Shown here in pieces: positions 1 through 38,900 of a stretch of 64,000 nt of DNA. Under the pieces are notes generated by a model. It did no database searches, was not told where the DNA came from, and saw only the letters and a list, made by a program, of their open reading frames with translations. The DNA is from an uncultured Holophagales bacterium (lineage in GTDB: Bacteria > Acidobacteriota > Thermoanaerobaculia > Multivoradales > UBA5704). Each line of letters begins with the position of its first letter. Position 1 is the stretch's first letter. The translations under genes and the position numbers were made by a program. The stretch is from NCBI GenBank assembly GCA_963842525.1, contig CAWJGT010000003.1:1504001-1568000 (forward strand). The letters are read 5' to 3'.

Positions 1-179
1 AGGGCTGTGAGCGTGGCCGCGAGCATCATTCCCGAGAACTGGGTCACGGACCGGGTCTGCTGGAAGAGCCAGACCCCCAGCGAGAAGCTGCCGAGGCCGG
101 TGCCCAGGTTGGATATCGTCTGCCCGGCCCAGATCGTGCCGTAGATCCGCAGCCCGTGCGATGCGCTCTTCCTTGCCAT
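1..179 (-). CDS. MFS transporter (DHA3/MFS_3-like efflux pump), N-terminal part, runs off the window
   Basis: Not in the ORF track. Manual translation from ATG at 179 gives MARKSASHGLRIYGTIWAGQTISNLGTGLGSFSLGVWLFQQTRSVTQFSGMMLAATLTA, matching the W.GQ..S..G...F.LG.W...T.S N-terminal pattern of MFS_3/MefA-like exporters. An AAGGAG RBS lies upstream. Confidence 0.8.
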   Translation of the reverse strand, partial: MARKSASHGLRIYGTIWAGQTISNLGTGLGSFSLGVWLFQQTRSVTQFSGMMLAATLTA

Positions 180-191: not shown

Positions 192-3100
192 CTACGACCC
201 TGATCTGCCCGCTTTGGGAGACATGGCGCCGCGGAGCCAGCCGCCGAGCCGCCGGAGGGCGGAGGGGCGCGGCGCGCTCTCCCGCACCACCCGGGCCAAT
301 CCCTCCAGCGTGGGACGGGCGAAGAGGTCCGCCACGGGCACCGCATGGCTCCAGCGCCCGGCGATCTGCGCCAGGAGCCGGACCGCCTGCAGCGAGTCGC
401 CCCCCAAGGCGAAGAAGTCGTCCCGCGAGCTCTCGGGGCGCCGGCCCAGGAGCTTCTCCCAGAGGCCGGCCAGCGCGGCTTCCACCTCGTCCCAGCCCGC
501 GGCGACGCGGGCCGGCGGCTGCGGCGGGACCGGCAGGGCGGCGAGGTCCACGTCCCCTCCGGCCGTGCGCGGCAGCGCCTCCAGGCGTACGAAGGCGTCG
601 GGGACGAGGTGCGCGGGCAGGCAGGCGCGCAGATGGCGGCGCAGCTCGTCGTCGGACGGAGCGCGGTCCTCTGGGGCGGCCAGCCAGGCGAGCAGCCGTC
701 CGCCGGCTGCGGTTCCCTCCCGCCAGGCCACGGCGGCCTCGCGCACCTCCGGATGGCCGGCCAGGGCCGCCTCGATCCGCCGCGGATCGGCGCTGTAGCC
801 CAGGCATTCGGGGAGCGGCTCCGGCGGGAAGTCGAGGGGCCGGCCGGGGGGCGGGGTCGGAGACGCCTCGTCCCAGCTCTCGGGCTCCCGGGCGAGGCGT
901 TCGAGCAGACGGCGGTAGCCGGCGAGCAGATCCGGGACCAGTTCTGCAGGGAGGACCTCCTCCACCGCCTGGCAGATCAGGTCCAGCCGCCCATCGTCGC
1001 CTTCCAGGGTGACGCAGAGCAGCAGCACCTGCGGGAGCGAGATCCGCACGTCCGTCTGCGTCAGGTCGATGTCGAAGCGCGGCGCCTCCCCGGCCTCGGT
1101 CTCCGGCTGCCGCGGGGCGGCCGGGGTCTGGTCCACGATGCTGTCGAAGAGCACCGGCAGGAGGGCACGGGCGCCGCAGCCGCGCCGGCGGTTCCATTCG
1201 CGCAGCGCCCGGTAGCCGGGGAAGTGCCGGTGCTCGAGGTCCTCGGCCAGGCGCTGCTGGAGGCGCCGGGCCCGCGTGCGGAACGTCCCCGGCGCGCCGG
1301 CGCCGCCCTCCACCGCCAGCAGGTGCAGACTGGTGAAGGTACCGAGCAGGCGCGAGATCTGCAGGTGGACCTCCGGCCGGTAGACGCCGACCACGCCGAG
1401 CGTGAAACGCGGCGCGGCGCACCATCCGGTCAGCGTCTCGGCGAAGGCGGCGGTCAGCAGGCCGGCCGGGGTGAGCCCCTCCTGGGCGGCGCGCTGCCGG
1501 AGGGAGAGCCAGTCGTCCGCCTCCAGCAGGCGCTGGCGCCGCCACTCGATGCGCGGCACGGTCTCGGGACCGAGGTCGCGCGCCAGCGGCAGGCGGGGTG
1601 GCGGCGGCAGCGCGGGAAGGCGGTCCATCCACCAGGCGCGGCAGCGCTCGTAGGTCGCGGTGGCGCGGAAGCCGTCGATGGCGCGCGCCCAGTCGAGATA
1701 GGAGATCTCCAGGGCCGGCAGCGCGCTCTCGCCGCCGTTGAGGATCGCGATCAGCTCGGAAACGAGAAGGCCGCGCGTGTGGCCGTCCATCAGCAGGGCG
1801 TCGAAGCGGGCGTGGAGACGCACCCGGCCGTTGTCGAGCTGGTGGACGACGATCTCGAAGAGCGGCCAGCGGCCGGCGGCCGGGCGGGCGTAGCGCAGCT
1901 CGTCGCGGACGGCTTCCAGGTGGCGCTCGACGCGCTCAGCCGGCCAGCCGCTCAGGTCCTCCACGCCGACGCTGCAGGCGGGGAGCTCCGCGAGGACCTC
2001 CAGCCGGCCGTCCGGGAGCACGACAGTGCGCAGGAGCTCGTGCCGCGCGACGACCCGCTGCAGGGCCTGCTCCAGGGCCGGGGCGAAGGTCCAGGCCGAC
2101 TCGGGAAATTCGTATTCGATGTAGACGTTCGGGCCGGAGCCGCCGAGGTCGAAGAGGCCGCTGTGGCCGATCCAGAAGACCTCCTGGGCGTCGGTCAGCG
2201 GCACAGGCGCCGCGCGGTCGACCGGTCCCTCGGCGATGCGAGGAACCTCGGGGGCGCTCGTCTTCCTCTCTTCGATGTTCTCGATCTTCTCTGCCAGGCG
2301 GGCAATCGTGCCCGTCTCGTAGAAGGCGCGCAGCGGAAGGTCGATCTGGAAAGCGCTGCGGATCCGCGACACGAGCTGCATGGCCACCAGCGAGTGGCCT
2401 CCCACCTCGAGGAACTCATCGTCGACGCTCACACGCTCCAGAGCGAGCGCTTCGGCCCAGATCCGGGCGAGCAGCTCCTCGGTGGGGGTGCGCGGAGCCA
2501 CGAAGGGGCGCGCGAGGTCCAGCCGGTCGGAGCCCGGCGCGGGGAGTGCGCGCACGTCGAGCTTGCCGTGGACGGTGAGCGGCATATGGTCGAGCGGGAT
2601 CAAGGCGCTCGGTACCATGTAGTCCGGCAGCCGATCCTGGAGCGCGGCACGCACCGAATCGACGAGCCCTTGGAGGCTGCTCCAGGCAAAGCGCTCGTCC
2701 GCGTTCCCGGGGAGGGCCGGCGGTGCCTCCCGGTCCCCGGGCCGCACGGCGAAGACGTTGTACAGCCGGGTCCGCCGCAGCGCCGCGTCCTGCTCGACCG
2801 CCACCCGGAAGCCGCGGCGCTCGAGCATCCCGGTAACCTCGGCCAGGCGCCCGTCGAGGTCGTGGACCTCCACCGCGACTTGGCGGACCCGTGGCCAGTG
2901 CTCCTCGGCCAGGCCGGCGAGGACCTCCATCTCGCTCTTCTCCACGTCGATCTTGAGCAGGTCGATCCGCTCGACCCCCTCCTGCGCAATGACTTGCGAC
3001 AGAGTCTTGAGCTCGCAGTCGACGGTCTGGCTGGTCAGCCGCTCGTCCAGGAGCTCCTCGAGATCGACGCCGTCCGCCTGCGCCTCGCCGTCGATGAGGA

Positions 3101-6100
3101 AGGAGCGGACCACCTCCCGCTCTTCGGCGGCGTCGGCAAAGCGGCCGGAGATGACCGAGACGTGGGGGTAGTAGACGAGCTCGGCGCGGCCCTGGGCGGC
3201 GGCCAGGCCGCACTCGAAGACGCGGGCGTCGAGCCCGTAGAGCTCGGTGTTCAGCCGCAGCGGCTCGCAGACCTGCGGGATGGGCTCGAAGATGTAGTAC
3301 CGGGCGCGGCGCAGGTGGCGGGCCGCCCAGACCGAGAACAGGCCGATGTTGGCCCCCACGTCGAAGATGCAGGCGTCCTCCTCGAGCCGGATGCCGTGGT
3401 GCAGATAGCTCTGCTCCAGGAAGATCTCGCGGTAGAGGAATTCGGTCTCGCTGCGGTTCAGATGGAAGACCGGCATGCCGTTGGGAAGCTCGTGGAGAGG
3501 GCGGCCGTCGGTCCTCCCTTCACGCTCTAGGCGCAGGAGCTGGAGCACCGGCAGGGCGCGGTCGGGCCGCGGCACCAGATAGGCGGCCAGGAGCCGGTCT
3601 CCGTCCGCGCCCTCGCGGGCGACCACCCGCGCCTCGGCGACCGCGGGATGGCGCGCGAGGGCCGCTTCGATCTCGCCCGGCTCGATGCGGAACCCCCGTA
3701 CCTTCACCTGCTGGTCGACCCGGCCGAGGTGCTCCAGGTCCCTCCCGGCGGTGGTGAAGAGGGCCCGCGCCAGGTCGCCGGTGCGGTACAGGCGCCCGCC
3801 GGGCTCCGGGCTCCAGGGGTCCGGGACGAACCGCTCCGCCGTGAGGTCGGGACGGCCGAGATAGCCGCGGGAGAGCCCGCGGCCGGCCACGTGGATCTCC
3901 CCCGGCACGAACGGGAGCGCGAGCTGGCCGTGGCCGTCCAGGACGCAGGTCCGCAGATCGGGGATGGCGACCCCCACGACGCTGCCGGATCCGTCCGCGA
4001 GGTCCGCCGCGGCGAGCGGCCGCCAGGTGACGTGCACGGTCGTCTCGGTGATGCCGTACATGTTGACCAGCCGGGGGCGCTCGTCGCCATGGCGCTCGAA
4101 CCAGGGGGCCAGGGACTGGAGGTCCAGGGCTTCGCCGCCGAAGATCACCCAGCGCAGGGCCAGATTCCTGGGGGAGGCCGCCTCCCGTTCCGCCTGGACG
4201 AGCTGGCGGAACGCCGAGGGCGTCTGGTTGAGCACCGTCACCCGCTCGCTTTCGAGGAGCGCGAGGAACACGTCCGGCGACCGGCTCACCCAGAACGGCA
4301 CGACCACCAGCCGGCCGCCATAGGCGAGGGCTCCCCAGACCTCCCAGACCGAGAAGTCGAAGGCGGAGGAGTGGAAGAGGGTCCAGACGTCGTCGGGGGA
4401 GAAGCCGAACCAGGGCTCGGTGGCGGTGAGCAGGCGGGCGGCGTTGCCGTGGGTGACCACCACCCCCTTGGGCCGGCCGGTCGAGCCGGACGTGTAGATC
4501 ACGTAGGCGGCGTTGCCAGCCCGCGGCTCCCCCGGACCGGCGGGGAGCGGCTCGCCGCTCTCTGTCTCGATGGCGGCGCGGTCTGCTTCGAGATCGACCA
4601 CCGCGAGGCCTCCGGCCGCGGGCAGGCGGTCGCGCACGTGCGGCTCGGTGACCAGCACGCGGCTCACGCAGTCGGCGAGCAGGAAGGCGAGCCGCTCGGA
4701 CGGGTAGTCGGGATCCAGGGGAACGTAGGCGGCGCCCGCCTTGAGGATGCCGAGGAGGCCCACCACCATCCCGGGAGAGCGGCCGACGCAGAGCGCCACC
4801 CGGCTCTCCGGCCCCACGCCCAGGCGCACCAGGAAGCGGGCGAGCCGGTTGGCGCGGCGGTCGAGCTCGCCGTAGGTGAGGGCCTGCCCCTCGCCGCGGA
4901 CCGCCTCGGCGTTGGGACGGCGCGCCGCCGTGGCCTCGAACCAGCGATGCAGGAGAGGCGGATCGGAGGCCCCGAGGGCCTCTGCGCCATCCAGGAGCTG
5001 CCGGCGCTCCGCGTCGAGGAGCAGAGCGACCTCCTCGTAGCGCGCGTCGGGCGCGGAGGCGAAGCTGGCCAGAGCCGCCTCGTAGCGGCGCACGGCCGCG
5101 CTCATCTGGTCGGGATGGAGCTCGGCCCGGTCGTACTGAAGGCGCAGAAGGAGGTGGGAGCCGAAGGGGTCGAGGTTGAAGCTCGCCATGTAGGTGAAGT
5201 TGATCTCCTCGTGGTACGTGCCGCCCAGGGTGCTGATCTCCGGGAACTGCTCCAACCCCTGGTAGATGTGGAAGTGCACGTACCCGAACGCCGCCTCGTA
5301 GAGCGGCCGGCCGCCCATTTCGCGCTGGAGGTCCACCATGGGATACCGCCGGTGCGGGAGCATTCCGCTCTCCGCCTCGAAGGCCTGCCGCGCCAGCTCC
5401 CGCCACGTGCCTCCGGCAAGGCGCAGGCGGACGGGAGGCGTGTTGAGGAAGAGGCCCAGCACCCGCTCGCCCTCGTCCTCTTCGAGCCGGCCGTTGCTGA
5501 CCATGCCGCTGACCACCTCCTCGGACCCGGAGAGCACCGACAGCACCCGCGAATGGGCGGCGAGGAGCACGCTCTTCAAGGGCAGGCCGGAGGCGCGGGA
5601 GAGGGCCCGCAGGTCCTCGCTCAGCCCGGGCGGCAGCGGCACCTCCACGAGCCCGGCGCCGCGCTCTCCCTGCCGGCCCGGCAGGGGGTGCCAGCGGGCG
5701 ATGGGCGAGACCCTGGCGCCGGCGAGGAGATCGCGCCAGTATCTGCGGCTGTCCTCGGAGGCCGCGGCCTGGCGTTCGAGCGCCACGAACTGCCGGTAGG
5801 AGCCGCCCGTTCCCAGCGCGGGAGGCTCGTCCCCCCGGAGCAGGGCCAGGTAGGTCCGGAACAGCTCCGCCATCAGCGTCGCCACGCTCCAGCCGTCGAG
5901 GATGGCGTGGTGGAAGCTCATGGAGAGCTGAAAGCTCTCTTCGCTCCGCCGGTCGATGCGGAAGCGCGCCAGGGGGGCACAGGCCCATTCGAAGGGCCGC
6001 CGCTTCTCCTCCTCGGTCCAGGCCGCCAGGGCCTCCTCCTGCCGCCCGGGGTCGAGGGCGCGCAGGTCCCCGAATTCCAGATCGAGCCCCACCTCGCGCT

Positions 6101-9100
6101 GCACGAGCTGGAGGGGCTCGCCGAAGCTGATCATGTCGAACGAGGTGCGCAGCACCGGGTGAGCGGTCACGACGTGCTCGAAGGCGCGGCGGAGCAGCCC
6201 GCTGTCGAACGGCGCGCGGAGATGGTTGGTGTAGATGTCGTGATAGACGGCGCTCTCCGGGGTGAGCTCGCTGTGGAAGAGCATGCCCGCCTGCAGGCGC
6301 GAGAGGGGGTAGGCATCCTCGACGCCCGCGGGCATACGCTCCCTCTCCTCCGCCGTCACCAGATCGAACGGCGCGGTCCGGAGCGGCGGCTCTGCTGCGA
6401 GGCTGGCGGCGCGGGCCAGGTCCCGCACGGTCTGATGCTGGAAGAGCTGCTGCAGGGTCAGGTGCATCCCCGTCTGCCGGACGCGGGAGAGGAGGCGGAT
6501 GCTCAAGATCGAGTCGCCGCCCAGGGCGAAGAAGTTGTCGAGCGCGCCGACCCGGTCGAGACCGAGGACCTCGGCCCAGAGGCTCGCGAGGATCTCCTCG
6601 CGGGCGGTGGCCGGGGGCTCGTAGGCGGTCTCCGGCGTTGCCGGGTCCGGGGCGGGAAGGGCCCGGCGGTCGAGCTTGCCGTTGGGCGATAGCGGCAGGG
6701 CGTCCAGCCGCACGCAGGCGGCGAGCAGCATGTAGTCGGGAAGCCGCTCGGCGGCGAAGCGGCGCAGGGTCTCCAGCGAAGGGGAGCGGTCCGGCGCGGG
6801 GACGATGTAGGCCACCAGCCGCTTCGTGCCGCCGTCCTCGCGGGCGAGCACCACGGCCTCGCGCACCTCCGGGTGCTCCGCCAGCACGCTCTCGACCTCG
6901 CCCAGCTCGATGCGGAAGCCGCGCACCTTGACCTGGTGGTCGATCCGCCCCAGGTACTCGATGGCGCCGTCGATCCGGGTGCGGGCGAGGTCGCCGGTGC
7001 GGTAGAGGCGGGCTCCCGGCTCGCCCGGGCCGGCGTACGGATCGGGCACGAACCGCTCGGCCGTCAGCGCGGACCGGTCGAGGTAGGCCCGGCCCACGTT
7101 CAAGCCGCCGATGCACAGCTCGCCCGGCACGCCGAGCGGGGCCGTCCGCCCACCCGTGTCGAGCAGGTGAATGCGGGTGTTGGCGATCGGGCGGCCGATC
7201 GGAACCGGCGTCCGGGCACCGGCGCAGCTCCAGCGCGTGACGTCGACGGCGGCCTCGGTCGGACCGTAAAGGTTCTCCAGACGGGCCGCCGGCAGGCGTT
7301 CGCCGCACCGCCGCGCGAGCTCGGCCGGGAGAGCCTCGCCGCTCGCCACGACCAGCCGGAGGGTCCTGCAGGCCGGGAGATCCGCCTCCTCCAGGAAGGC
7401 CTGGAGCATGGACGGGACGAAGTGCAGCACCGTGACTCCTTCGGCCCGGATCAGGCCGGCCAGATAGGCGGGGTCGCGGTGACCGCCCGGCCGCGCCAGG
7501 ACCAGCCGGGCGCCGGCGAGCAGCGGCCAGAAGAGCTCCCAGACCGAGACGTCGAAGCTGAACGGGGTCTTCTGGAGCACCGTGTCCGCCGGGGTCAGGC
7601 GGTAGGCGTCCTGCATCCAGACCAGGCGGTTGACGATCGCCCGGTGGTGCACCATGGCCCCCTTGGGCCGCCCCGTGGAGCCGGAGGTGTAGATCACATA
7701 GGCGAGCCCCGAGCCGCCGGCCGGAACCTCGGGACCAGGCTCCGCGGTCTCCTCGAAGGCATCGAGGCAGAGCACCGGCCCGGCGAACGGGGGCAGCGAC
7801 GGCAGCAGCCGCTCCTGGGTCAGAAGGGCCGCCGGCCGGGAGTCCTCCAGCAGATAGGCCAGCCGGTCGCGCGGGTAGTCGGGGTCGAGGGGCACGTAGG
7901 CGGCCCCGGCCTCGAGAGTGCCGAGGAGGGCGACCATCAGCTCGGCGGATCGCTCCATGGCGATCCCCACCCGGCTCTCGGGGCCGCAGCCCAGGGCACG
8001 CAGGCGGGCGGTGAGCGCGCGGGCGCGGCTCCCGAGCTCCGCCCAGGTCAGGCCGCGGCCTTCGAACGTGACGGCCACGGCCCCGGGGGTCCGCCGCTCC
8101 TGCGCGGCCACGAGCCCGTGCAGCGAGGGCTCCCCGGAAAGCTCGGGATAGCCCGAGAGGGTGTCGTTCCACTCGCGCTCGACCTGGTGGGCCTCGGCGG
8201 CGGAGAGCAGGGGCAGGGCCGACAGCGGGAGCAGGGGTTGGGCGGCGGCCGCTGCCACCAATGCCTCGAAGCGGCGGGCGAACCGCTGTGCCGTCGGCGG
8301 ATCGAACAGGTCGGTGCGGTACTCCAGGTCCCCTTCGATGCCACGCGGCCCCTCCATGAGGATGAGATGGAGGTCGAACTGCGCCGTGCGCACCTCGAAG
8401 CCGTAGGGGCTCAGGGCCAGGCCGTCCGGCCTCTCACCCCCTGCCGCCGGCAGGTTCTGGAAGGTGAGCACCACCTGGAACAGCGGGCTGCGCGACAGAT
8501 CCCGGGGGAGGTCGAGGGCGTCCACCAGCTTCTCGAACGGCAGGTCCTGGTGCGTGCCGGCATCCATCACCATGGCGCGGATCCGCGGCAGGAGATCCTG
8601 GAAGAGGGGGTCGCCCGCGAGGTCGAGGCGCAGCACCAGGGTGTTGACGAAGAACCCGATGAGGCTCTCGATCTCTGGGCGGTTGCGGCCCGCGACGGGA
8701 GTGCCGATCAGAAGGTCCTCCTGTCCGGTGGCGCGCAGCAACAGGGTGCCGAACGCCGCCGCCAGGGCCATGAACGGCGTGGCACCGCACGCGCGGGCGA
8801 CCTCGCGGAGGGCCGCGGCGGTGGCGGCCGGCACGGCCACGGGCTCGCGGCGGCCGTGGAAGGTCTGCACCGGGGGGCGCGGCCGGTCGGCCGGCAGCTC
8901 CAGGGCGGTGGGGGCGCCCGCCAGGCGCTCCCGCCAGAAGCGCAGGTGCGACTCCAGCACCTCTCCCTGGAGGTGGCCCCGCTGCCATTCGGCGAAGTCC
9001 GGGTACTGGATCGGCAGCTCCGGCAGCGGCGATGGGAGCCCGGCGGCGTAGAGCGTGGTCAGCTCGCGCACCAGGAGGCCCATCGACCAGCCGTCGGAGA

Positions 9101-9626
9101 CGGCGTGGTGCATACCCAGGACGAGGACATGCTCGTCCGTACCCAGGCGCAGGAGGAGCGGCACGAAGAGGGGTCCGCGCGCAAGATCAAATGGCTGGAG
9201 GCGCAGCGCGCCGGCCAGGCGGGCCATCTCGGCCGCGCAGGCGGCCTCGGGAAGCGCCGCGAGGTCGGCCCGCGGCAGCCCCGTCCCTGTCCAGGGTTGG
9301 ACGGCCTGGACCGGCTCTCCGTCCGTGGCCGGAAAGGTGGTGCGCAGCGCCTCGTGCCGGCGGACGACCTCGGCCAGGGCGCGCTGGAGAGCCGGTCCGT
9401 CGAGATCGCCGCGGAGGTGAACCGCTTCCATCAGGTTGTAGGCCGGGCTTACCGGGTCGAGCTGGTGCAGGAACCAGAGCCGCTGCTGGCCGAAGGAGAG
9501 GCGGGCCGGCCCGGTCCCGGCGCGGCGGGGGATCCGCTGCGGCGCCTCGGCGGCGAAGCCTTCCTTGCGCAGGAGCCGGGCGCGCAGCAGGCGCCGCTTG
9601 TCGGAGGTGGACAGGGCCTCGGTCAT
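192..9626 (-). CDS. Terminal NRPS (~3144 aa): C-A(Ser)-PCP-C(DCL-like)-A(Thr)[FkbM-type MT]-PCP-Cy-A_sub(vestigial)-PCP, no TE
   Basis: The true start is MTEALSTSDKRRLL at 9626 (ATGA overlap with the upstream stop). Motifs: HHAVSDG; Ser code DVWHVSLVDK; GGDS PCP; HHAILDG; Thr code DFWNIGMVHK; MT motifs FDVGANIG and LLKIDVE inside the A domain; Cy motifs PLTDAQEVFWIG and DALLMDG; final PCP FFALGGDSL. Confidence 0.93.
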   Translation of the reverse strand: MTEALSTSDKRRLLRARLLRKEGFAAEAPQRIPRRAGTGPARLSFGQQRLWFLHQLDPVSPAYNLMEAVHLRGDLDGPALQRALAEVVRRHEALRTTFPATDGEPVQAVQPWTGTGLPRADLAALPEAACAAEMARLAGALRLQPFDLARGPLFVPLLLRLGTDEHVLVLGMHHAVSDGWSMGLLVRELTTLYAAGLPSPLPELPIQYPDFAEWQRGHLQGEVLESHLRFWRERLAGAPTALELPADRPRPPVQTFHGRREPVAVPAATAAALREVARACGATPFMALAAAFGTLLLRATGQEDLLIGTPVAGRNRPEIESLIGFFVNTLVLRLDLAGDPLFQDLLPRIRAMVMDAGTHQDLPFEKLVDALDLPRDLSRSPLFQVVLTFQNLPAAGGERPDGLALSPYGFEVRTAQFDLHLILMEGPRGIEGDLEYRTDLFDPPTAQRFARRFEALVAAAAAQPLLPLSALPLLSAAEAHQVEREWNDTLSGYPELSGEPSLHGLVAAQERRTPGAVAVTFEGRGLTWAELGSRARALTARLRALGCGPESRVGIAMERSAELMVALLGTLEAGAAYVPLDPDYPRDRLAYLLEDSRPAALLTQERLLPSLPPFAGPVLCLDAFEETAEPGPEVPAGGSGLAYVIYTSGSTGRPKGAMVHHRAIVNRLVWMQDAYRLTPADTVLQKTPFSFDVSVWELFWPLLAGARLVLARPGGHRDPAYLAGLIRAEGVTVLHFVPSMLQAFLEEADLPACRTLRLVVASGEALPAELARRCGERLPAARLENLYGPTEAAVDVTRWSCAGARTPVPIGRPIANTRIHLLDTGGRTAPLGVPGELCIGGLNVGRAYLDRSALTAERFVPDPYAGPGEPGARLYRTGDLARTRIDGAIEYLGRIDHQVKVRGFRIELGEVESVLAEHPEVREAVVLAREDGGTKRLVAYIVPAPDRSPSLETLRRFAAERLPDYMLLAACVRLDALPLSPNGKLDRRALPAPDPATPETAYEPPATAREEILASLWAEVLGLDRVGALDNFFALGGDSILSIRLLSRVRQTGMHLTLQQLFQHQTVRDLARAASLAAEPPLRTAPFDLVTAEERERMPAGVEDAYPLSRLQAGMLFHSELTPESAVYHDIYTNHLRAPFDSGLLRRAFEHVVTAHPVLRTSFDMISFGEPLQLVQREVGLDLEFGDLRALDPGRQEEALAAWTEEEKRRPFEWACAPLARFRIDRRSEESFQLSMSFHHAILDGWSVATLMAELFRTYLALLRGDEPPALGTGGSYRQFVALERQAAASEDSRRYWRDLLAGARVSPIARWHPLPGRQGERGAGLVEVPLPPGLSEDLRALSRASGLPLKSVLLAAHSRVLSVLSGSEEVVSGMVSNGRLEEDEGERVLGLFLNTPPVRLRLAGGTWRELARQAFEAESGMLPHRRYPMVDLQREMGGRPLYEAAFGYVHFHIYQGLEQFPEISTLGGTYHEEINFTYMASFNLDPFGSHLLLRLQYDRAELHPDQMSAAVRRYEAALASFASAPDARYEEVALLLDAERRQLLDGAEALGASDPPLLHRWFEATAARRPNAEAVRGEGQALTYGELDRRANRLARFLVRLGVGPESRVALCVGRSPGMVVGLLGILKAGAAYVPLDPDYPSERLAFLLADCVSRVLVTEPHVRDRLPAAGGLAVVDLEADRAAIETESGEPLPAGPGEPRAGNAAYVIYTSGSTGRPKGVVVTHGNAARLLTATEPWFGFSPDDVWTLFHSSAFDFSVWEVWGALAYGGRLVVVPFWVSRSPDVFLALLESERVTVLNQTPSAFRQLVQAEREAASPRNLALRWVIFGGEALDLQSLAPWFERHGDERPRLVNMYGITETTVHVTWRPLAAADLADGSGSVVGVAIPDLRTCVLDGHGQLALPFVPGEIHVAGRGLSRGYLGRPDLTAERFVPDPWSPEPGGRLYRTGDLARALFTTAGRDLEHLGRVDQQVKVRGFRIEPGEIEAALARHPAVAEARVVAREGADGDRLLAAYLVPRPDRALPVLQLLRLEREGRTDGRPLHELPNGMPVFHLNRSETEFLYREIFLEQSYLHHGIRLEEDACIFDVGANIGLFSVWAARHLRRARYYIFEPIPQVCEPLRLNTELYGLDARVFECGLAAAQGRAELVYYPHVSVISGRFADAAEEREVVRSFLIDGEAQADGVDLEELLDERLTSQTVDCELKTLSQVIAQEGVERIDLLKIDVEKSEMEVLAGLAEEHWPRVRQVAVEVHDLDGRLAEVTGMLERRGFRVAVEQDAALRRTRLYNVFAVRPGDREAPPALPGNADERFAWSSLQGLVDSVRAALQDRLPDYMVPSALIPLDHMPLTVHGKLDVRALPAPGSDRLDLARPFVAPRTPTEELLARIWAEALALERVSVDDEFLEVGGHSLVAMQLVSRIRSAFQIDLPLRAFYETGTIARLAEKIENIEERKTSAPEVPRIAEGPVDRAAPVPLTDAQEVFWIGHSGLFDLGGSGPNVYIEYEFPESAWTFAPALEQALQRVVARHELLRTVVLPDGRLEVLAELPACSVGVEDLSGWPAERVERHLEAVRDELRYARPAAGRWPLFEIVVHQLDNGRVRLHARFDALLMDGHTRGLLVSELIAILNGGESALPALEISYLDWARAIDGFRATATYERCRAWWMDRLPALPPPPRLPLARDLGPETVPRIEWRRQRLLEADDWLSLRQRAAQEGLTPAGLLTAAFAETLTGWCAAPRFTLGVVGVYRPEVHLQISRLLGTFTSLHLLAVEGGAGAPGTFRTRARRLQQRLAEDLEHRHFPGYRALREWNRRRGCGARALLPVLFDSIVDQTPAAPRQPETEAGEAPRFDIDLTQTDVRISLPQVLLLCVTLEGDDGRLDLICQAVEEVLPAELVPDLLAGYRRLLERLAREPESWDEASPTPPPGRPLDFPPEPLPECLGYSADPRRIEAALAGHPEVREAAVAWREGTAAGGRLLAWLAAPEDRAPSDDELRRHLRACLPAHLVPDAFVRLEALPRTAGGDVDLAALPVPPQPPARVAAGWDEVEAALAGLWEKLLGRRPESSRDDFFALGGDSLQAVRLLAQIAGRWSHAVPVADLFARPTLEGLARVVRESAPRPSALRRLGGWLRGAMSPKAGRSGS
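2750..3500 (-). other. FkbM-family methyltransferase domain embedded in the Thr A domain (approximate limits)
   Basis: LYREIF...YLHHGI, CIFDVGANIG, FEPIP and IDLLKIDVEKSE lie between A8 (VKVRGFRIE) and A9 (LPDYMVP). Confidence 0.85.
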
Positions 9627-18600: not shown

Positions 18601-21600
18601 GCGCCAGGACCGGCGCTCCGGCGAGCCGCTCCCGCCAGTGGGCGATCTCGGCCGCGAGAGTTGCGCCGGACAACCAGGAGCGCTGCCAGACGGCGTAGTC
18701 CGCGTACTGGATGGGCAACGGGGGGAGGTCGGCCGGGGTCCCGGCGAGGTCCGCCCGGTAGAGCGCCGACAGCTCTGCGACCAGGATGCCCATCGACCAG
18801 CCGTCGGTGACCACGTGGTGCAGGGCGAGGAGCAGCCGGTGCTCCTCGGGCGCCAGGTGCAGCAGCGCGGTCCTCAGCAGCGGCCCCGCGGCGAGATCGA
18901 ACGGCCGCCGCGCCTCCTCGGCGGCGAGCCTGCGGGCCTCGGCGGTGCGCACCGCGGTGGGCAGGCCGGCCAGGTCCACGACCGGCAACGGCCAGCTCTC
19001 CGGCGGCGGGGCGATCGCCTGGACCGGCGCGCCGGCGCTCTCCGGGAAGGTGGTGCGTAGCGCTTCGTGCCGGGCCACCAGCGCGGCCAGAGCGCGGGCC
19101 AAGCCGGCGGCCGACAGCGGCCCGTCGATCCGCAGAGCCTGCGTGAGGTTGTAGGCCGCGCTCCAGGGCTCGAGCTGATGCAGGAACCAGAGCCGCTGCT
19201 GGGCGAAGGAGAGGGGCGGCGGGGTGTCGCGCGCCATCGGGACCGGCGGCGGGGGCGTGGAGCTGCCGCCGCGCAGGGCCGTCTCGACCACCGCCGCGAA
19301 TCCGGAGACCGACGGCGCCTCGAAGAGCGAGCGCAACGGCACGTCGACCCCGAACACCGACCGGACGCGGGCGACCGCGCGGGTGGCGAGGAGCGAGTGC
19401 CCGCCGAGATCGAAGAAGCTGTCGTGGGCGTCGACGGCCTCGATGTCCAGGACCTCTGCCCAGATCGCGGCCAGGGCCTCCTCGACCGGCCCCCGGGGCG
19501 GCACCCGGGAGGCCCCTGCCTCCTGCCGCGCGCTTCCCAGATCGGGCAGGGCGCGGCGGTCGACCTTGCCATGCGGCGTGACCGGCAGCGCATCGAGGAT
19601 GACGAAGGCCGCAGGGAGCATGGGCTCGGGCAGCCAGGCGCGCAGGGAGGACCGGAGGCCGCCGGCGGTGAGGCCGGCAGCGCCCGCGCCGCGCGGAACC
19701 ACATAGGCCACCAGCCGGTCCTCCCGGAGCGCCACCACCGCCTCGCGCACCTGCGGATGCCGCGCGAGCGCCGCCTCGACCTCGCCAAGCTCGATGCGGT
19801 GGCCGCGGACCTTGACCTGATGGTCGGCGCGGCCCAGATACTCAAGCTCGCCGTCCGGCCGGTGGCGCGCCAGGTCGCCGGTGCGGTAGAGCCGGGCTCC
19901 GGTGCTCCCGGGGCCGCAGAAGGGGTCGGGGACGAAGCGCTCGGCCGTCAGCTCCGGACGGCCGAGATAGCCGCGCGCGAGCCCCGGCCCGCCGACGTGG
20001 ATCTCACCGGCGGCGCCGATCGGCACCGGCTCCAGGCGCGCGTCGAGCAGCCGCAGGCGCAGGTCCGGAATGGCGCGGCCGACCGGGCTCGAGCGGCCGT
20101 CGAGGTCGGCCGCCGACATCTCGCGCCAGGTCACGTGCACCGTGGTCTCGGTGATGCCGTACATGTTGACCAGGCGCGGCCGGTGGCCGCCATGACGGGA
20201 GAGCCAGGGGCCGAGGGTTGCGGGCTCCAGGGCCTCGCCCCCGAAGATCACCCAGCGCAGTGCGAGCCGGTCCGCCCCCTCCGGGCCGGAGACCTCCTCA
20301 TCGGCCCGCGCAAGCTGGCGGAAGGCCGAGGGGGTCTGGTTGAGCACGGTCACCCGCTCGCGGAGCAGCAGCCCGCGGAAGCTCTCCGGCGAGCGGCTCG
20401 TCCAATGGGGGACGACGACCAGCCGGCCGCCGTAGAGCAGGGCGCCCCAGATCTCCCAGACCGAGAAGTCGAAGGCGTAGGAGTGCAAAAGGGTCCAGGC
20501 GTCGCCTTCGCCGAAGCCGAATCGGCCGGCCGTGGCGGCGAACAGGCGCACGGCGTTGCCGTGGGTGACCAGGACCCCCTTGGGCCGGCCCGTCGAGCCC
20601 GAGGTGTAGATCACATAGGCCAGGTTGCCGGGGGAGGGCCCGGAGCCTGCGGCGGGCCCGCCGCCCGGGCTCTCCTCCCGCTCCACATCCTCGATGCGGA
20701 GGAGGCGTGCCGCGGTCTCGGGCACGGCGGTCTTCTCGTCGGTGATCAGGACCGGCGCGCCGCTGTCCTCCAGCAGAAACGAGATCCTGTCGGCGGGATA
20801 GAGCGGATCGATGGGAATGTAGGCCCCGCCGGCCTTGAGCACGGCCAGGAGGGCCGCCACCAGGCGGGGCGAGCGCTCCAGGCAGAGGGCGGCGGGGACA
20901 TCCGGCCCGACGCCGAGGGCGCGCAGCCGGGAGGCCAGCCGCTCGGCGCGGGCGTCGAGCTCGCGGTAGGTGAGCGCCTCCTCGCCGCAGGAGACGGCCA
21001 CGGCCTCCGGCCGCCGTGCGGCGACCGCCTCGAACAGGCGGTGCAGGCAGGTGGTGGAGCCGAATGACTCGCTCTCTCCCCATTCGAAGAGGAGCTGCTG
21101 CCGCTCCTCCGGAGTCAGGAGCGGCAGATCCTCCGGGCACCGCCGCGGGTCCTCGGCCATGGCCGCGAGCAGGGTCCGCAGATGCCCCAGCGTCCGCGCC
21201 GCACCGGCCGGATCGATGCGCGACCGGTCGTAGAGGGCGTGGAGCACGAGCGGCGCACCCGGGGCCACCACCAGGGTGAGCGGGTAGTTGGTGCGGCCGA
21301 CGCCGTGGAGCTCGCGGGTGCGCAGTTGCACCGCCGCGTGGCTCAGGGCCTCGGACATCTGGTTTTCGAACACCACGATCGTCTCGAAGAGCGGGCGGCC
21401 CGGAGGGATCTCGCTCCACGCCTGGATGCGGGCGAGCGGCGTGTGCTCGTGGTCGCGGGCTTCGGCCTGCCGCTCCTGGAGCTCGCGCAGCCAGGGGAGG
21501 AGCGGCTCCGCGAGCGGCGCCGCGGCCCGCACCGGCAGGGTGTTGATGAACAGCCCGACCATCGCTTCGGAGCCCGGCAGGGAGGCCGGACGTCCCGAGA

Positions 21601-22438
21601 CGGTGGTGCCGAAGAGCACGTCGCGCTGGCCGCTCCAGCGGGCCAGCAGGAGCGCCCATGCCGCCTGGACCATGGTGTTGAGGGTGAGCTGGTGCGTCCG
21701 TGCGAAACCCTGGAGGGCCGCGGCCCGGTCCGCCGGCAGCACGTCGCGGACCTCCGCCGCGGCGTCGGCATCCGCGGCCGACCGGCCGGCCGCGGGACCC
21801 GGGGCCGGCAGCGGGGTCGGATGGTGGAAGCCGGCGAGCTCGCGGCGCCAGAACGCCTCATCGCCGGAGGTGTCGCGGCTCTGCAGCCAGAGGAGAAACT
21901 CGCGGTAGGGCCGCGGCCGTTGTAGGCGCGGCGCCTGTCTGCGCTGCAGCGCCTCGTAGGCGATGGAAACATCGCGGAAGACGAAGGGCAGGCACCAGCC
22001 GTCGAGCAGGATGTGGTGGAAGCTGAGCACGAGTTGGTGGCTCTGCTCGCCGAGGCGGAAGAGCGCGAGGCGGAGGAGCGGCGCGCGGCCGAGCTCGAAG
22101 CCGCGGGACCTATCCTCGCGGAGATGGGCCGCGAGCCGCTCCCGTTGCGTGGCCGGGGAGAGCCCGCGCCAGTCGCCGCGGTGCCAGGAAGGCTCGACCC
22201 GGCGGTGGACCGCCTGCAGGGGCTTCGGCAGTCCCTCCCAGTGAAACGCGGTGCGCAGCACCGGATGGCGCTCGATCACCGACTCCCAGCCGCGCTCGTA
22301 CGCAGCCGTGTCCAGGTCCCCTTCGAGCACACAGGCGCGCTGCTCGTGGTACACCCCGGATCCCGGCGCGTAGAGGGTGTGGAAGAGCATCCCCTCCTGT
22401 ACCGGGGTGAGCTGCATAGAGATCTTCGAGCTTGTCCT

Positions 22439-22442
<4 letters not shown>
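9623..22442 (-). CDS. Four-module NRPS (~4272 aa): C(DCL)-A(Thr)-PCP-C-A(Ala)-PCP-C-A(Asn)-PCP-C-A(unassigned)-PCP, with a 1-nt frameshift at ~22412
   Basis: ORF 9623..22417 plus the N-terminus MKDKLEDLY in another frame (ATG 22442, ATGA overlap). Codes read by eye: DFWNIGMVHK (Thr), DLYNNALTYK (Ala), DLTKIGEVGK (Asn), DALDLGSVTK (unassigned). Four GGHS PCPs and HHxxxDG in each C domain. Confidence 0.92.
12858..13229. repeat. Copy A of a ~372 bp near-identical direct repeat (PCP plus start of C)
   Basis: Aligns without gaps to 16041-16412. Both encode LPAPEPA.PRPAGAALRTPVEELLAGIWEEVLRVE.VRAEDDFFALGGHSLLATRV.SRVRDSFGVELPLQALFEQ...SFAQQRLWFLHQ. Confidence 0.9.
16041..16412. repeat. Copy B of the ~372 bp direct repeat (PCP plus start of C)
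   Basis: Same length and near-identical nucleotide sequence to 12858-13229. Confidence 0.9.
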
Positions 22443-35914
<13,472 letters not shown>

Positions 35915-35935: not shown

Positions 35936-38900
35936 CTAGCTCTCCGTCACCGGGACCAGACGGCGTTGTGCCCGCCGGACCACCTGGCTCTGGCGTTGCT
36001 GAGCCCGCATCCGCCGCGCCGCGGGATCGAGCCCCCGCAGCTCTGCCGCCAGCTCGCCCACCCCGGCGTCCGGCCGGGCGGCGGCGCACACCACCGCCAC
36101 GAAACCGTCGAGCAGGCTCACGGCGGTCGGCGCCGTGAAGAGATCCGTGCTGTACTCCAGGCGCACGTCGAGCCCCGAGCCGCTCTCCGTCAGGTTGAAC
36201 AGCAGGTCGAACTTGGCCGTGCGGGTATCAAGGTCCAGGTGGGTGACCGTCAGATTGCACGCGCGCCGCACCGCGGCCGGGGTGTTCTGCAGCACGAGCT
36301 TGACCTGGAAGAGCGGCGTGCGGCTCAGATCGCGCGCCGGTTTCAATGCCTCCACCACCTTGTCGAAGGGGGCATCCTGGTGGGCATAGGCGTCGAGCGT
36401 CAGGCGCCGCACGCGGCGCAGCAGCTCGCGGAACGTAGGCTCCCCTGACACGTCGATACGCAGCGCGAGCTGGTTGACGAAGAGCCCGATCAGCCGTTCG
36501 GTCGCGCTCTGCGTCCGGTTGGCGATGTCGGTTCCGATCACCAGGTCATCGCTCCCCGAGGCGTGCCGCAGCAGCACCGAGAAGGCCGCGAGCAGGGCCA
36601 TGAAGAGAGTCGCCTCCTCCTCGCGCAGGGTCTGGCGTAGCGGCTCGATGATCTCGCTGCGGATCCAGGTCCGCTCGACGGCACCATGGCCTGTGCGGAC
36701 GCAGGGGCGCGGCCGGTCGGTGGGCAGCTCCAGGAGCGGCAGCCCGGCGAGCCGCTGCCGCCAGTAGTCGATCTGCCGGGAAAGGACCTCCCCCTCCAGC
36801 CAGCCGCGCTGCCAGGCGGCGTAGTCGGCGTACTGCACCGGCAGCTCGGACAGCCGCGCCTCGCGCCCTTCGACGAGCGCTTCATAGAACTCCAGCACCT
36901 CGCCGAAGACGACGCTCCAGGACCAGCCGTCCGCGGCGATGTGGTGGATGTTGAGCAGGAGCTCGGACTCCGTGGGCGCGAGCCGCAGCAGGCAGGCCCG
37001 GAGGATGGGGCCGCGGTAGAGATCCAGCGGCAGGCGGGCGGCCTCCAGGGCGACGCGCCGGCTCTCGGCCTCGGTCCGGGAGGCCGGCAGGGCGCCGAGA
37101 TCGATCAGCGGCAGGGCGCCCAGGAAACGCCCCTCCGCGGGCGCGATCACCTGGCGCTGCTCGCTCTCGTCCACCGCGAAAACGGTGCGCAGCACCTCGT
37201 GCCGCTCCACGAGCCGCTCCAGCGCGGTACGCAGCGCCTGCCGGTCCAGCTCGCCGCTCAGCCGCAGGACCACCGGCAGGTGGTAGGAGGCGTCTCCCGG
37301 CGCGAGCCGTTCCAGGAAAAGCAGCCGCTGCTGCGCGAACGAGAGAGGCAGGGGAGCGGTACGCGGCACCCGGACGATCAGCGGCGTGCTGCCGTCCTCG
37401 CGCCGCTCCCCGATCCGCGCCGCGAGGCCCGCGACCGTGGGCGCCGCGAAGAAGCTATCCAGGGTCAGCTCGCAGCCGAAGGTCTCACGCACCTGCGAGA
37501 TCACCCGGGTGGCGAGGAGGGAGTGCCCGCCGAGCTCGAAGAAGTCGTCGTACACCCCGATCTCCGCGATGCCCAGGAGCGCCTGCCAGACCGCGACCAG
37601 GCGCCGCTCGACCGCGTTGCGCGGCGCCACGTACGCCGTACCCAGGTCCGGCCGCGCGTGCCCGGCGGCCGTTTCCACGGCGGCCTGCGCCGGAGCCGGC
37701 GCCTCGGCAGTTTCCTGCGTGGCGGGCGCGGCCTGCAGCGCCCGGCGTTCGATCCAGTAGCGCCGCCGCTGGAACGGGTAGGTGGGCAACGGGATGCGCC
37801 GCCGCGCCTCGCCGGCCCAGAACGCCTGCCAATCGACCGCGGCGCCGGCCAGCCAGAGCCTGCCGAGGGCGCGCAGCAGCACGGCCAGATCGGACCCTTC
37901 CTCGCGCGGGTGGCGCAGGGAGGCGACCACGTCATGCCCCGCTCCGGGCGGGATCTGCCGCCGCGCCAGCTCGCCAAGGGTGCGGCCGGGACCGACTTCG
38001 AGGAGCGTCAGGCCCTCGATCGCTTCCGCCAGGAGCTGCTGGAGGCCCGGTCCGAAGCGCACGGTTTCGCGCAGGTGGCGTACCCAGTAGGCGGGATCGG
38101 TGGCCTGCCCGGCGGTGATCCAGGTCCCGGTCAAATTGGAAAGATAGGGAGTCGCCGGGGCGAGCAGAGTCACCCGCGACACCCGCTCGGCGAAGGGGCG
38201 GAGGGCCGGTTCCATCATTGCGGAGTGGAAGGCGTGGGAGGTCTGCAGCCGGCGGGTGACCGCGCCGCGCGATTCCAGGCGCCTCTCCAGGTCCGCGATC
38301 TCCTCCTCCGGTCCCGCGACGGCGCAGAGCCCCGGGCCGTTCACCGCGGCCAGGGCCAGGCCGCCGGCGAGCTCCCGCTCGATCTCCGCCTCCGTCAGAT
38401 CGACCGCGAGCATGGCGCCCGGGGGCAGCTCCTGCATCAGCTCCCCGCGCGTCGCGATCAGGTCGAGGGCATCCTCCAGCGAAAGGACGCCGGCGAGGCA
38501 GGCCGCTGTGTACTCGCCGAGGCTGTGGCCGATGAGAGCAGCAGGCTCCACCCCCCAGGACAGCCACAGGCGGGCCAGAGCGTGCTCGACGGCGAAGAGG
38601 GCCGGCTGCGCGTAGCGGGTCTGGCGCAGCCGGCGCTCCGCCGAGACCGCCGGCTCTCCGGCCGCCGGGTACAGGAGCGTGCGCAGGTCGCATCCCAGCC
38701 GCGGCGCGACCCTTTCGGCGCACTCGTCGAGGGCACGGCGGAACGCGGGCTCGCTCTCGTAGAGACCGCGTCCCATGCCCGGGTGCTGCGCCCCCTGCCC
38801 GGGGAAGAGGAAGGCGACGGGGCGGCGCTCCGCGGCGCGGCGCGTCACGAGCCGTTGGGGGTCGCGTTCGCGCAATGCCGCGGCCGCCTCCTCCGGTGCG

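Follow-up and report, generated by a model that had tools for sequence, protein, structure and literature searches.

An assembly line that ends in a degenerate heterocyclisation domain, an adenylation-domain relic and an intact carrier protein beside an exporter gene

Chain release fixes the final shape of non-ribosomal peptides and is a major obstacle to predicting and re-engineering their products. How does an assembly line let go of its chain when its last module lacks an adenylation (A) core and no thioesterase (TE) is found nearby? This question is raised by a non-ribosomal peptide synthetase (NRPS) line in the genome of an uncultured Holophagales bacterium (9.95 Mb, 34 contigs, about 74% G+C). 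The stretch of 64,000 nucleotides analyzed here (the window, C3:1504001-1568000; C3 and C34 denote contigs of this genome) includes the terminal NRPS gene of the line. An earlier reading of the letters alone, hereafter the original prediction, had assigned to this gene a vestigial terminus consisting of a heterocyclisation (Cy) domain, the small C-terminal subdomain of an A domain (Asub) and a peptidyl carrier protein (PCP), without an A core. The open reading frame (ORF), its translation and Pfam matches bear this architecture out, and comparison with relatives indicates that the Cy domain, written Cy* below, retains its fold and has lost residues important for cyclodehydration. The terminal elements, in positions of the window, are as follows.

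192..9626, minus strand: terminal NRPS gene, with ATG at 9626, stop at 192-194 and 3144 aa (ORF and translation, Pfam, tblastn with its own domains)
807..2216, minus strand: Cy*, a heterocyclisation-type condensation domain with a degenerate active site (PDB matches, clade membership)
537..806, minus strand: Asub relic of a dead A domain (AMP-binding_C without a core)
252..506, minus strand: terminal PCP, or PCP3 (PP-binding)
195..284, minus strand: basic tail of 30 aa after the terminal PCP (conserved relative to the related contig L005, described below)
1..179, minus strand: start of a major facilitator superfamily (MFS) gene for an EntS-like exporter (MFS_1, MFS_3), which extends outside the window to C3:1502812

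The domains of the terminal gene run C-A(Ser code)-PCP-C'(dehydrating type)-A(Thr code, with an FkbM methyltransferase (MT) inserted)-PCP-Cy*-Asub relic-PCP, where C stands for a condensation domain and domain borders were mapped by tblastn with the protein's own domains. Across the 3144 aa, Pfam identifies three Condensation, two AMP-binding, three AMP-binding_C and three PP-binding domains and one Methyltransf_21 domain, so that one AMP-binding_C is left without an AMP-binding core. Within the last 709 aa, Condensation (E 4.1e-22, aa 81-391), AMP-binding_C (PF13193, E 3e-9, aa 516-588, above the family cut-off) and PP-binding (PF00550, E 4.9e-13, aa 616-678) are recovered, and the AMP-binding core (PF00501) has no match there up to E = 1. 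The DALLMD motif of the Cy domain, the replacement of the A10 Lys by Asp, the GGDS motif of the PCP and the transporter as next gene were all found where the original prediction had placed them. Its view of the terminus as TE-less, devoid of an A core and non-canonical likewise stands, and this terminus is conserved in an independent metagenome-assembled genome (MAG), in a paralogous line and across the 43 members of one clade.

Sequence and fold homology place Cy* among Cy domains: its best PDB matches are the Cy domain of EpoB (5t7z, E 4.8e-63) and Cy2 of BmdB (5t3e, E 1.5e-60), aligned end to end, and it carries DxxxxD in place of HHxxxDG, yet the Asp-Thr dyad and helper Gln of Cy domains are missing. 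The intact Cy motif of the original prediction is therefore correct for DxxxxD only, as the cyclodehydration residues have been replaced. In the description of HMWP2-Cy2 given in PMC9547227, the putative catalytic dyad is D1862/T1830 with Q1864 as helper, the latch residues are T1856-P-Q1858, Y1505 and R1509 lie in helix alpha1, R1812 in helix alpha10 binds the acceptor PCP at its phosphate, and mutation of dyad or helper residues severely affects cyclodehydration; the dyad is also defined in a preprint (bioRxiv 10.1101/2024.12.18.629141). We located the dyad Thr as the T of VVFTS and the dyad Asp as the D of TPQVWLDHQ, as confirmed by the 30-residue spacing in BmdB, and the corresponding stretches of the window read as follows.

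1785..1802, minus strand: DALLMD, the DxxxxD motif, kept (translation, motif table)
1134..1154, minus strand: VLFDSIV replacing VVFTS, dyad Thr changed to Asp (alignment to EpoB and BmdB, motif table of 125 rows)
1008..1037, minus strand: LPQVLLLCVT replacing TPQVWLDHQV, dyad Asp changed to Leu, helper Gln to Val and latch Thr to Leu (alignments)
2157..2204, minus strand: N-terminal Cy motif VPLTDAQEVFWIGHSG, tunnel Tyr changed to Phe and the Arg pairing with DxxxxD to His
1188..1205, minus strand: LREWNR, its Arg aligned with the conserved Cy helix Arg, kept (alignment columns)

At the N-terminal motif Cy* thus reads EVFWIGH, and elsewhere GTFTS stands where GDFTS is expected. In a motif table of 125 Cy-type rows, taken from the matches of one protein search, the tunnel Tyr is present in 114 rows and the pairing Arg in 113, nearly all rows outside the Cy* clade read FTS and LD.Q, and canonical Cy domains without an A domain of their own keep the dyad. 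The helix Arg of LREW is retained both generally (116 of 125 rows) and in eight of nine Cy* rows. Judging from the alignment, this residue is the putative counterpart of the alpha10 Arg that binds the phosphate of the acceptor PCP, and its retention suggests that acceptor-side docking of the PCP on Cy* has probably been kept. Heterocyclisation, one of the activities that the original prediction had allowed for the Cy domain, appears unlikely for Cy*, because the residues whose loss is severe for cyclodehydration (PMC9547227) are absent in every member; in the window both dyad residues, the helper Gln and the tunnel Tyr are replaced.

The loss of the dyad is a property of a family rather than of one gene. 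Analyzed with 11 canonical Cy rows, 43 dyad-less Cy domains form one clade with an SH-like support of 100 and a long stem (FastTree), within which the window groups with L005 and with a 716-aa JGI protein (P0202); an earlier tree, with six such rows among the 125, also gave this clade a support of 100. To the family belong proteins in which the terminal module and the exporter are one chain. When the PCP-linker-MFS part of the paralogue on C34 was searched among longer proteins, 120 were listed and then domain-mapped: 35 are Cy-...-PCP-MFS fusions (14 Cy-A-as-T-MFS, 14 Cy-as-T-MFS and 7 Cy-T-MFS, with "as" for Asub and T for the PCP), 62 have a C-type NRPS module before the MFS (mostly actinomycete, listed with PF00975), 22 are MFS proteins without an NRPS part and one is C-A-as-MFS. 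The dyad Asp is absent from all nine first relatives and all 35 fusions, and the PCP Ser is kept in all nine and all 35, the two sets overlapping through the C34 paralogue (P0271). No fusion has an intact A3 P-loop, including nine with A-like regions of 531-606 residues, the A10 Lys is found in a single one (P0306), and no TE was found in the members of this Cy*-(A*)-PCP-MFS family. Since the Cy domain starts at residue 43-62 in 35 of 35 fusions, these are stand-alone proteins. Four of the 14 Cy-as-T-MFS proteins have a relic as short as that of the window (157-162 aa).

The window module has both hallmarks of the family, namely a place in the dyad-less clade and a PCP followed by a homologous MFS (here adjacent, across a 12-bp gap), and is an unusual member in being fused to preceding modules and split from its MFS. 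In the same genome, the paralogous line at C34:355122-359400 (L260) ends in the stand-alone P0271 (1479 aa), whose single frame encodes Cy*, a degenerate A domain of full length, PCP and MFS. Source names within the clade include Thermoanaerobaculia, Chloroflexia and Herpetosiphonaceae. The loci share no gene after the MFS or the Cy*-PCP unit: there is an Asp/Glu racemase in L005, a Peptidase_M28 gene and then the MFS at locus L107, and convergent PKS/NRPS genes at locus L106 (PKS, polyketide synthase). Modules with a Cy and no A domain are not rare in themselves, as they account for 25 of 124 Cy domains in the 121 proteins examined (with the window's own protein counted twice).

The junction between Cy* and Asub stands in sequences of other origin. 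A Thermoanaerobaculia MAG contig (L005, DASWME010000230.1), whose name (k141_...) suggests a separate assembly, carries the C-terminal half of the Cy domain, Asub, PCP, stop, 12 bp and the MFS gene, is 87% identical to the window over 508 aa and also has Asp at the position of the A10 Lys; synteny ends at the MFS, with nothing shared beyond in blastn or tblastx. A soil-metagenome contig of 1039 nt (X5 record 26) matches window positions 676-839 and 951-1713, with an equally long but diverged stretch between the two matches, and bridges the Cy/Asub junction without an insert, and P0202 (62% identical) yields a single continuous alignment across it. The Cy-Asub-PCP arrangement, which the original prediction had proposed to look for in other clusters, is therefore found in L005, in P0202 and among the Cy-as-T-MFS fusions. 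Soil-metagenome sequencing runs contained only small shares of the sampled words (at most 0.10), on which we base no claim as to habitat or strain.

Wider searches returned few further cases. Among 301 genomes of the class, eight had a match at E <= 1e-40 and none outside the window's own genome held an orthologue, the others sharing the Cy part only (37-44% identity). A first tridomain scan of genome contigs gave seven loci; the "short" matches at L006-L010 (Kribbella, Pyrinomonadaceae, Actinoplanes, Cellvibrionaceae) were rotated, joining Asub-PCP to the Cy domain of the next module in ordinary Cy-A-PCP lines, and L011 was a weak match to Asub only. A search of protein representatives for the junction of Cy end, Asub and PCP returned 110,262 matches at E <= 0.001, and the best 150 of these were almost all giant NRPSs matched through repeated Asub-PCP units, with P0202 and P0004 as the informative ones. 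The new loci of a second genome-contig scan lacked the architecture, their patterns deriving from the generic Asub/PCP part. A metagenome scan gave two loci, one of which (L104) is a member, and scans with P0049 and P0009 recovered the locus of P0049 (L106) and a paralogue (L107) but not the genome of P0009.

The relic itself runs from the A8-derived LGYSADPRRIE (771-803, with the GYSADPRR... stretch at 777-800) to the A10 relic LPRTAGGDVD (546-575). It is 44% identical to the A1 subdomain of the same protein by own-domain mapping and reads GGDVD where A1 reads NGKLD; it is recognizable as the C-terminal subdomain of an A domain, while the A core (A3 P-loop, A4/A5) and the A10 Lys are gone. 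The A10 Lys is described as required for adenylation (PMC10510592). As both core and Lys are missing, the module's own A domain reads as dead and self-loading of the terminal PCP is, on this sequence, excluded. Relic length, taken as the number of residues separating the last Cy helix and the PCP core motif, varies within the family, as does the residue at A10.

C34 paralogue (P0271): relic of 427 residues, Ala at the A10 position
P0004: relic of 337 residues, Arg at the A10 position
Window and L005: relic of 158 residues, Asp at the A10 position
P0202: relic of 152 residues, A10 loop deleted
P0009, L104, P0049 and L107: relic of 64-82 residues, no A10

Close neighbors in the clade differ as much (P0271 427, P0277 431, P0272 160, P0273 159, P0278 67), which indicates that the relic has been trimmed repeatedly. 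Relics consisting of Asub only (152-162 aa) recur in two sub-lineages, and the A8-derived motif, as (A)LGYGA.PR.VE, in many of the 35 fusions. Between the window and L005, dN/dS is 0.23 for Cy, 0.30 for Asub, 0.195 for the PCP and 0.095 for the 30-aa tail, consistent with purifying selection throughout, although these values come from one sequence pair and the Asub counts are small (19 synonymous and 16 non-synonymous changes). The docking scaffold that the original prediction had seen in Asub finds some slight encouragement in this selection and in the recurring relics; however, close relatives with no relic, or a far longer one, show it to be dispensable. The Asub of the window marks a point along the erosion of a dead A domain.

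The PCP, unlike the two catalytic domains of the module, looks intact. The GGDS motif lies at 393-404 with the Ser codon at 393-395, so that the terminal PCP has both the PF00550 match and the GGxS motif of an apparently intact carrier. The MFS gene starts with an ATG at 179, 12 bp after the NRPS stop, and encodes 455 aa (MFS_1 E 7.6e-27, MFS_3 E 1.4e-10), with 82% identity to its counterpart behind this module in L005. P0271, P0004, L104 and 34 other listed proteins carry PCP and MFS as an in-frame fusion, and in the window and L005 the gene is split inside the PCP-MFS linker: the NRPS ends in ...GWLRGAMSPKAGRSGS and the MFS begins with MARKSASHGLRIY..., with ...ARRTASHGLRMY... as counterpart inside the fused proteins. 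The basic 30-aa tail is 97% identical to that of L005 and is equivalent to the linker of the fused relatives. The PCP Ser and the first MFS motif are 86 residues apart in the window, compared with 71-108 in the 21 of 35 fusions with a pattern match. Ordinary termini, too, can be followed by a homologous MFS gene (39-46% identity), as at L187, L189, L201 and L235; a GxSxG stretch after the last PCP is read as a TE in the first three, and L235 has a reductase-like stretch.

A release enzyme was sought around both lines. The NRPS/PKS genes of the window's line extend from relative position +85301 down to +192, all on the minus strand, with 25 carrier-domain matches; the line mixes NRPS and PKS modules, its first gene encodes a FAAL-type AMP-binding domain, an acyl carrier protein (ACP) and a C domain, and riboflavin-synthase-like, beta-eliminating-lyase and phosphoribosyltransferase genes lie before its start. 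PF00975 (TE) has no match within C3:1425712-1779956 (14 genome-wide), PF07993 (reductase, R) none nearer than C3:1376640 (11 genome-wide), and neither these two families nor PF12697 (alpha/beta-hydrolase) and PF00144 (PBP-type) have a match in the intervals 1.48-1.60 Mb of C3 and 0.29-0.365 Mb of C34. Judged by these four families, the terminus is TE-less, and the absence of a TE or reductase after the terminal PCP, as originally predicted, extends to the flanks. A 575-aa AMP-binding ORF about 8 kb beyond the line start, on the other strand and beside sulfatase and UbiA genes, was considered as a trans-loader and set aside as unlinked.

Further NRPS genes beyond the MFS, which the original prediction had named as grounds for abandoning it, do exist: a FAAL-ACP gene, a C-?-PCP gene and a glycosyltransferase-fused NRPS gene lie within 3 to 22 kb on the same strand. 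We read them as a separate line, because they have their own FAAL-ACP starter, L005 shares nothing past the MFS, and the C34 paralogue has no NRPS-domain match from its MFS (ending at 359330) to 380000, or about 20 kb. Between the MFS and this line lies an ORF of 338 aa (L003:1000-2016, equal to C3:1501000-1502016, minus strand) that opens like a signal peptide and lacks a Pfam match; L005 does not have it behind its MFS, and about 2 kb separates the MFS from the second FAAL-ACP gene.

Two modules upstream of Cy*, the five lines examined share a further arrangement, for which the remaining domains of the terminal gene are needed.

8172-9506, minus strand: C domain (C1; own-domain mapping)
6657-8111, minus strand: A1 (own-domain mapping)
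6387-6611, minus strand: PCP1 (own-domain mapping)
4992-6311, minus strand: C' of dehydrating (CmodAA/DHC) type, after the Ser module (PDB matches McyA and AmbE)
2292..4922, minus strand: penultimate module (Pfam, own-domain mapping, code reading)
3840-4922, minus strand: A2 core, code DFWNIGMVHK (own-domain mapping)
2772-3386, minus strand: FkbM-type MT inside the A2 subdomain (Pfam, own-domain mapping)
2292-2489, minus strand: PCP2 (own-domain mapping)

Read at motif-anchored positions, the specificity codes are DVWHVSLVDK for A1, which we take to be a Ser code, and DFWNIGMVHK for A2, presumably a Thr code. The A1 code (DVWH[VI]SLVD-) stands two modules upstream in five of five lines (window, P0004, P0009, P0049 and C34, the last with H at the final position), whereas the penultimate codes differ in all five (DFWNIGMVHK, DLTKIGEVGK, DIFHFGLIIK, DVWQFGMIDK, DASTVAAVCK). 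The best PDB matches of C' are McyA (8jbr, 407 bits) and AmbE (7r9x, 234 bits), followed at a distance by the next best (151 bits), and the same C' occurs at the same position, with 47-49% identity, in P0004, P0009, P0049 and C34. The shared code and C' together define a conserved cassette, A(Ser)-PCP-C'(dehydrating type)-A(x)-PCP-Cy*-(A relic)-PCP-MFS. C2 of AmbE is described as a dehydrating condensation domain (PMC10510592; PMC10880069), and by this likeness the Ser of the cassette may become dehydroalanine.

Several known systems resemble parts of this terminus. Crocacin CroK-C2 and fungal CT domains are members of the C superfamily that end a line without a TE, as last domains that act on the upstream carrier; the window differs in having a conserved PCP after its C-type domain. 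The yersiniabactin line ends with a TE in HMWP1. Like the window, HMWP2 (ArCP-Cy1-A(E)-PCP1-Cy2-PCP2) and Cy3-PCP3 of HMWP1 have a Cy domain followed by a PCP without an A domain of its own, and HMWP2 also ends in Cy-PCP without a TE, but HMWP2-Cy2 is described with D1862/T1830/Q1864 present, as making a thiazoline and as passing the chain to a PKS (PMC9547227). In the window the dyad is gone, an A relic is kept, only an exporter lies downstream and a TE was not found, so that it shares neither the working Cy domain nor the accepting downstream module of an HMWP2-type unit. In AmbE a carrier comes after a C-type domain that has no A domain, and in the account of PMC10880069 no residue is incorporated there; its C2 is however an HHxxxDG dehydrating C domain, with a TE after T2, and the window has such a C' one module earlier. 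TlnC of the thiolactomycin pathway is likewise reported with a non-canonical dyad and with chain removal rather than ring formation, yet it reads N-D, needs the Asp and works with a PCP loaded with Cys by a functional A domain, TlnD (bioRxiv 10.1101/2024.12.18.629141), while the window has lost the Asp and lacks a working A domain.

Actinomycete proteins named "non-ribosomal peptide synthetase/MFS transporter" (C-A-T-TE-MFS) have, fused at their C-terminus, a homologous MFS that is 30-37% identical to the C34 query; by precomputed Pfam annotation, not checked row by row, they have a working-looking A domain and a PF00975 domain between PCP and MFS, and the Cy* family has neither. Asub-like pieces apart from an A core are also described for interrupted A domains and for the pseudo-Asub of StsA (PMC10510592). 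There they frame a tailoring insert, as in P0003 (MT inserted) and P0015 (oxidase, Ox, inserted, also with AAGDVD), both Cy-Asub(insert)-PCP without an A core, whereas the window Asub has no insert and a degenerate Cy partner. In the main texts of the papers searched, taken without supplements (such as the alignments of the TlnC preprint), we found nothing on dyad-less terminal Cy domains with A relics, nor on NRPS-MFS fusions, and no described product for the Cy*-(A*)-PCP-MFS family, whose hosts are uncultured-type soil bacteria rich in such clusters. Cy-PCP modules without an A domain are already known, as are NRPS-MFS fusions, for which an NCBI product name exists; what we did not find described is a monophyletic set of dyad-less Cy domains in which each is combined with an A domain that is dead or missing, an intact PCP and a fused or adjacent MFS, and with no TE.

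The last module appears to derive from a heterocyclisation module, Cy-A-PCP, whose two catalysts have since decayed, leaving only the PCP fully intact. The explanation we favor, with slightly less than an even chance of being right (about 0.45), is that no heterocycle is made at this point and the finished chain is handed to an exporter-coupled PCP for TE-independent off-loading. Cy* would form no oxazoline; it would move the lipopeptidyl chain from PCP2 to the terminal PCP, likeliest by direct transthioesterification to the thiol of the holo-PCP as in AmbE, the chain would be parked at the exporter and leave without a dedicated TE, and the Asub stump would be a tolerated leftover, perhaps a spacer, that is not required. 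In AmbE (Q-A-MT-T1-C2-T2-TE), the chain is reported to be transthioesterified from T1 to the A-less T2 after C2 has acted (PMC10880069). Such a hand-over fits a dead A domain in every sampled member, the hydrophobic acceptor contacts and the stand-alone units without an A domain. The family-wide loss of A function, together with the change of acceptor contacts from polar to hydrophobic, argues against a Cys, Ser or Thr acceptor, and the universally kept PCP Ser and the putative acceptor-site Arg suggest that the PCP still enters the acceptor side. The architecture, the residue losses, the conservation, the MFS coupling and the lack of TE, R or hydrolase matches nearby are observations; that the chain moves in this direction, that it meets no aminoacyl acceptor and that it is released in this way are inferred. 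Several points weigh against this explanation: the precedent for transthioesterification, AmbE, is a C domain of another type with a TE still following T2; the explanation gives no account of the final cleavage of the thioester; the HMWP2 precedent and the Ser-coded A1 in five of five lines leave some probability to an aminoacyl acceptor; the codes depend on motif-anchored positions and an assumed code-to-substrate key, the trees on FastTree only and the dN/dS values on the single pair; and, given apparent frame breaks upstream, the line may be non-functional in this strain.

The main competitor, which we consider unlikely though by no means negligible, has A1 or A2 aminoacylate the terminal PCP and Cy* condense without cyclising, with release by an unlinked hydrolase or spontaneously. 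In the account of PMC9547227 the A domain of HMWP2 serves PCP1 and PCP2 in cis and, in trans, also PCP3 of HMWP1, and the abundance of A-less Cy modules, the kept DxxxxD and putative acceptor-PCP Arg, and the Ser-type code two modules upstream in all five lines would each suit this route. The difference of the penultimate code in all five lines, the need for loading in trans in all 35 stand-alone fusions, and the replacement of acceptor heteroatom contacts by hydrophobic ones, when canonical A-less Cy domains keep the dyad, lead us to prefer hand-over to the PCP; by either route the chain would end on a carrier tethered or adjacent to the exporter and leave without a TE. It is rather improbable that Cy* is itself the release catalyst, by hydrolysis, cyclisation or a cleavage off-loading that uses dehydroalanine, with the PCP only as holder or exporter recruiter. 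This possibility draws on TlnC, a Cy domain with N-D for T-D that is reported to form a thiocarboxylate leaving the line (bioRxiv 10.1101/2024.12.18.629141), on the cleavage off-loading proposed for photoxenobactins (PMC9396620), and on the McyA/AmbE-like C' after the Ser module in five of five lines combined with the failure to find a TE. TlnC needs its dyad Asp, however, which is absent in every family member examined, the retained PCP Ser and putative acceptor Arg argue that the PCP is an acceptor, and no clade-specific candidate catalytic residue was identified.

The remaining explanations concern the integrity of the line, and we give them little credence. Decay of the module, or of the whole line in this strain, would account for two degenerate catalytic domains and for frame breaks in the window (near 26500, 27800, 29150 and 42970), but is very improbable given a dN/dS of 0.10-0.30 on all parts, an open gene of 3144 aa and a PCP Ser always kept across the 43-member clade. 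A continuation of the line on the genes beyond the MFS (FAAL-ACP, C-?-PCP and GT-A-PCP-C-A..., GT being the glycosyltransferase) is favored by their strand and proximity and seems to us very improbable as well, as the first of them is a starter, the 338-aa ORF and some 2 kb intervene, L005 and C34 lack a continuation, and the second line has no PF00975 match either. An assembly artefact, in which an A core of about 1.3 kb had collapsed, was the other ground on which the original prediction could have failed; apparent indel errors do occur elsewhere in the assembly, yet the same junction in L005, X5 record 26, P0202 and the 14 Cy-as-T-MFS proteins reduces this to a negligible chance.

At the level of the family, we would suggest only tentatively, and with more doubt than confidence, that Cy*-(A*)-PCP-MFS units form a TE-independent, membrane-coupled class of termination, distinct from others, in which a Cy-derived domain, turned from ring formation to another use, passes the finished chain to a carrier tethered to its exporter, off-loading and export are one step and an upstream dehydroalanine may join in release. 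If true, an exporter-tied release route may exist. A terminal unit without TE, R or terminal C domain recurs in 43 proteins, with soil Acidobacteriota and Chloroflexota among the sources' names, and we expect that genome-mining tools are likely to mis-annotate such lines as incomplete or oxazoline-forming. The family also provides a natural deletion series of a dead A domain, from full length through Asub only to nothing, which bears on how much spacer a C/Cy-PCP pair needs and hence on module engineering.

Other features of the locus and its relatives were recorded alongside. Apparent frameshifts, with an NRPS domain running from one ORF into an overlapping ORF of another frame, occur at the four window positions given above and, outside the window, at relative positions 69990, 75200 and 77950; they could stem either from long-read indel errors in the assembly or from a decaying line. 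The 22 MFS-only proteins (in the range P0305-P0329, and P0343) have precomputed Pfam annotations of Peptidase_M28, penicillin amidase (PF01804) or FtsX-like, and an M28 peptidase gene lies between Cy*-PCP and MFS at L107:22487-24862; these MFS-peptidase/amidase fusions hint at export-coupled trimming of lipopeptides. In the second line, a 1151-aa protein (L001:11131-14586, equal to C3:1495131-1498586, minus strand) has C and PCP domains about 620 residues apart with no Pfam match at E <= 0.001 between them, a gap that may be another dead A domain. At L001:2531-11134 (minus strand) a glycosyltransferase group 1 domain stands at the N-terminus of an NRPS frame, and third-position G+C (GC3) points to a switch, near C3:1488400, to the next frame of 2111 aa.

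Within the window, a second C domain of McyA/AmbE type (31409-32722) is 48% identical to the C' at 4992-6311, which suggests two dehydro-amino acids in the product. In the window the FkbM-family MT interrupts the A subdomain of a Thr-coded module; P0049 has this insert in its Ser-coded module. The line's other Cy domain (54881-56176, row P0030) is canonical, with FTS and LDHQ, and belongs to a Cy-A-Ox-PCP module (52256-56176, minus strand) with a nitroreductase-type oxidase inside its A subdomain, pointing to a thiazole or oxazole in the product. A second module without an A domain (56276-57838, minus strand) consists of a C domain at 56516-57838, 53% identical to C1, with its PCP directly after it at 56276-56449. 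Finally, C-type domains stand in tandem across two gene borders (36077-37345 and 34640-35887; 22439-23860 and 21092-22399), where one gene ends in a C domain and the next opens with a divergent C-type domain 28-32% identical to C1.

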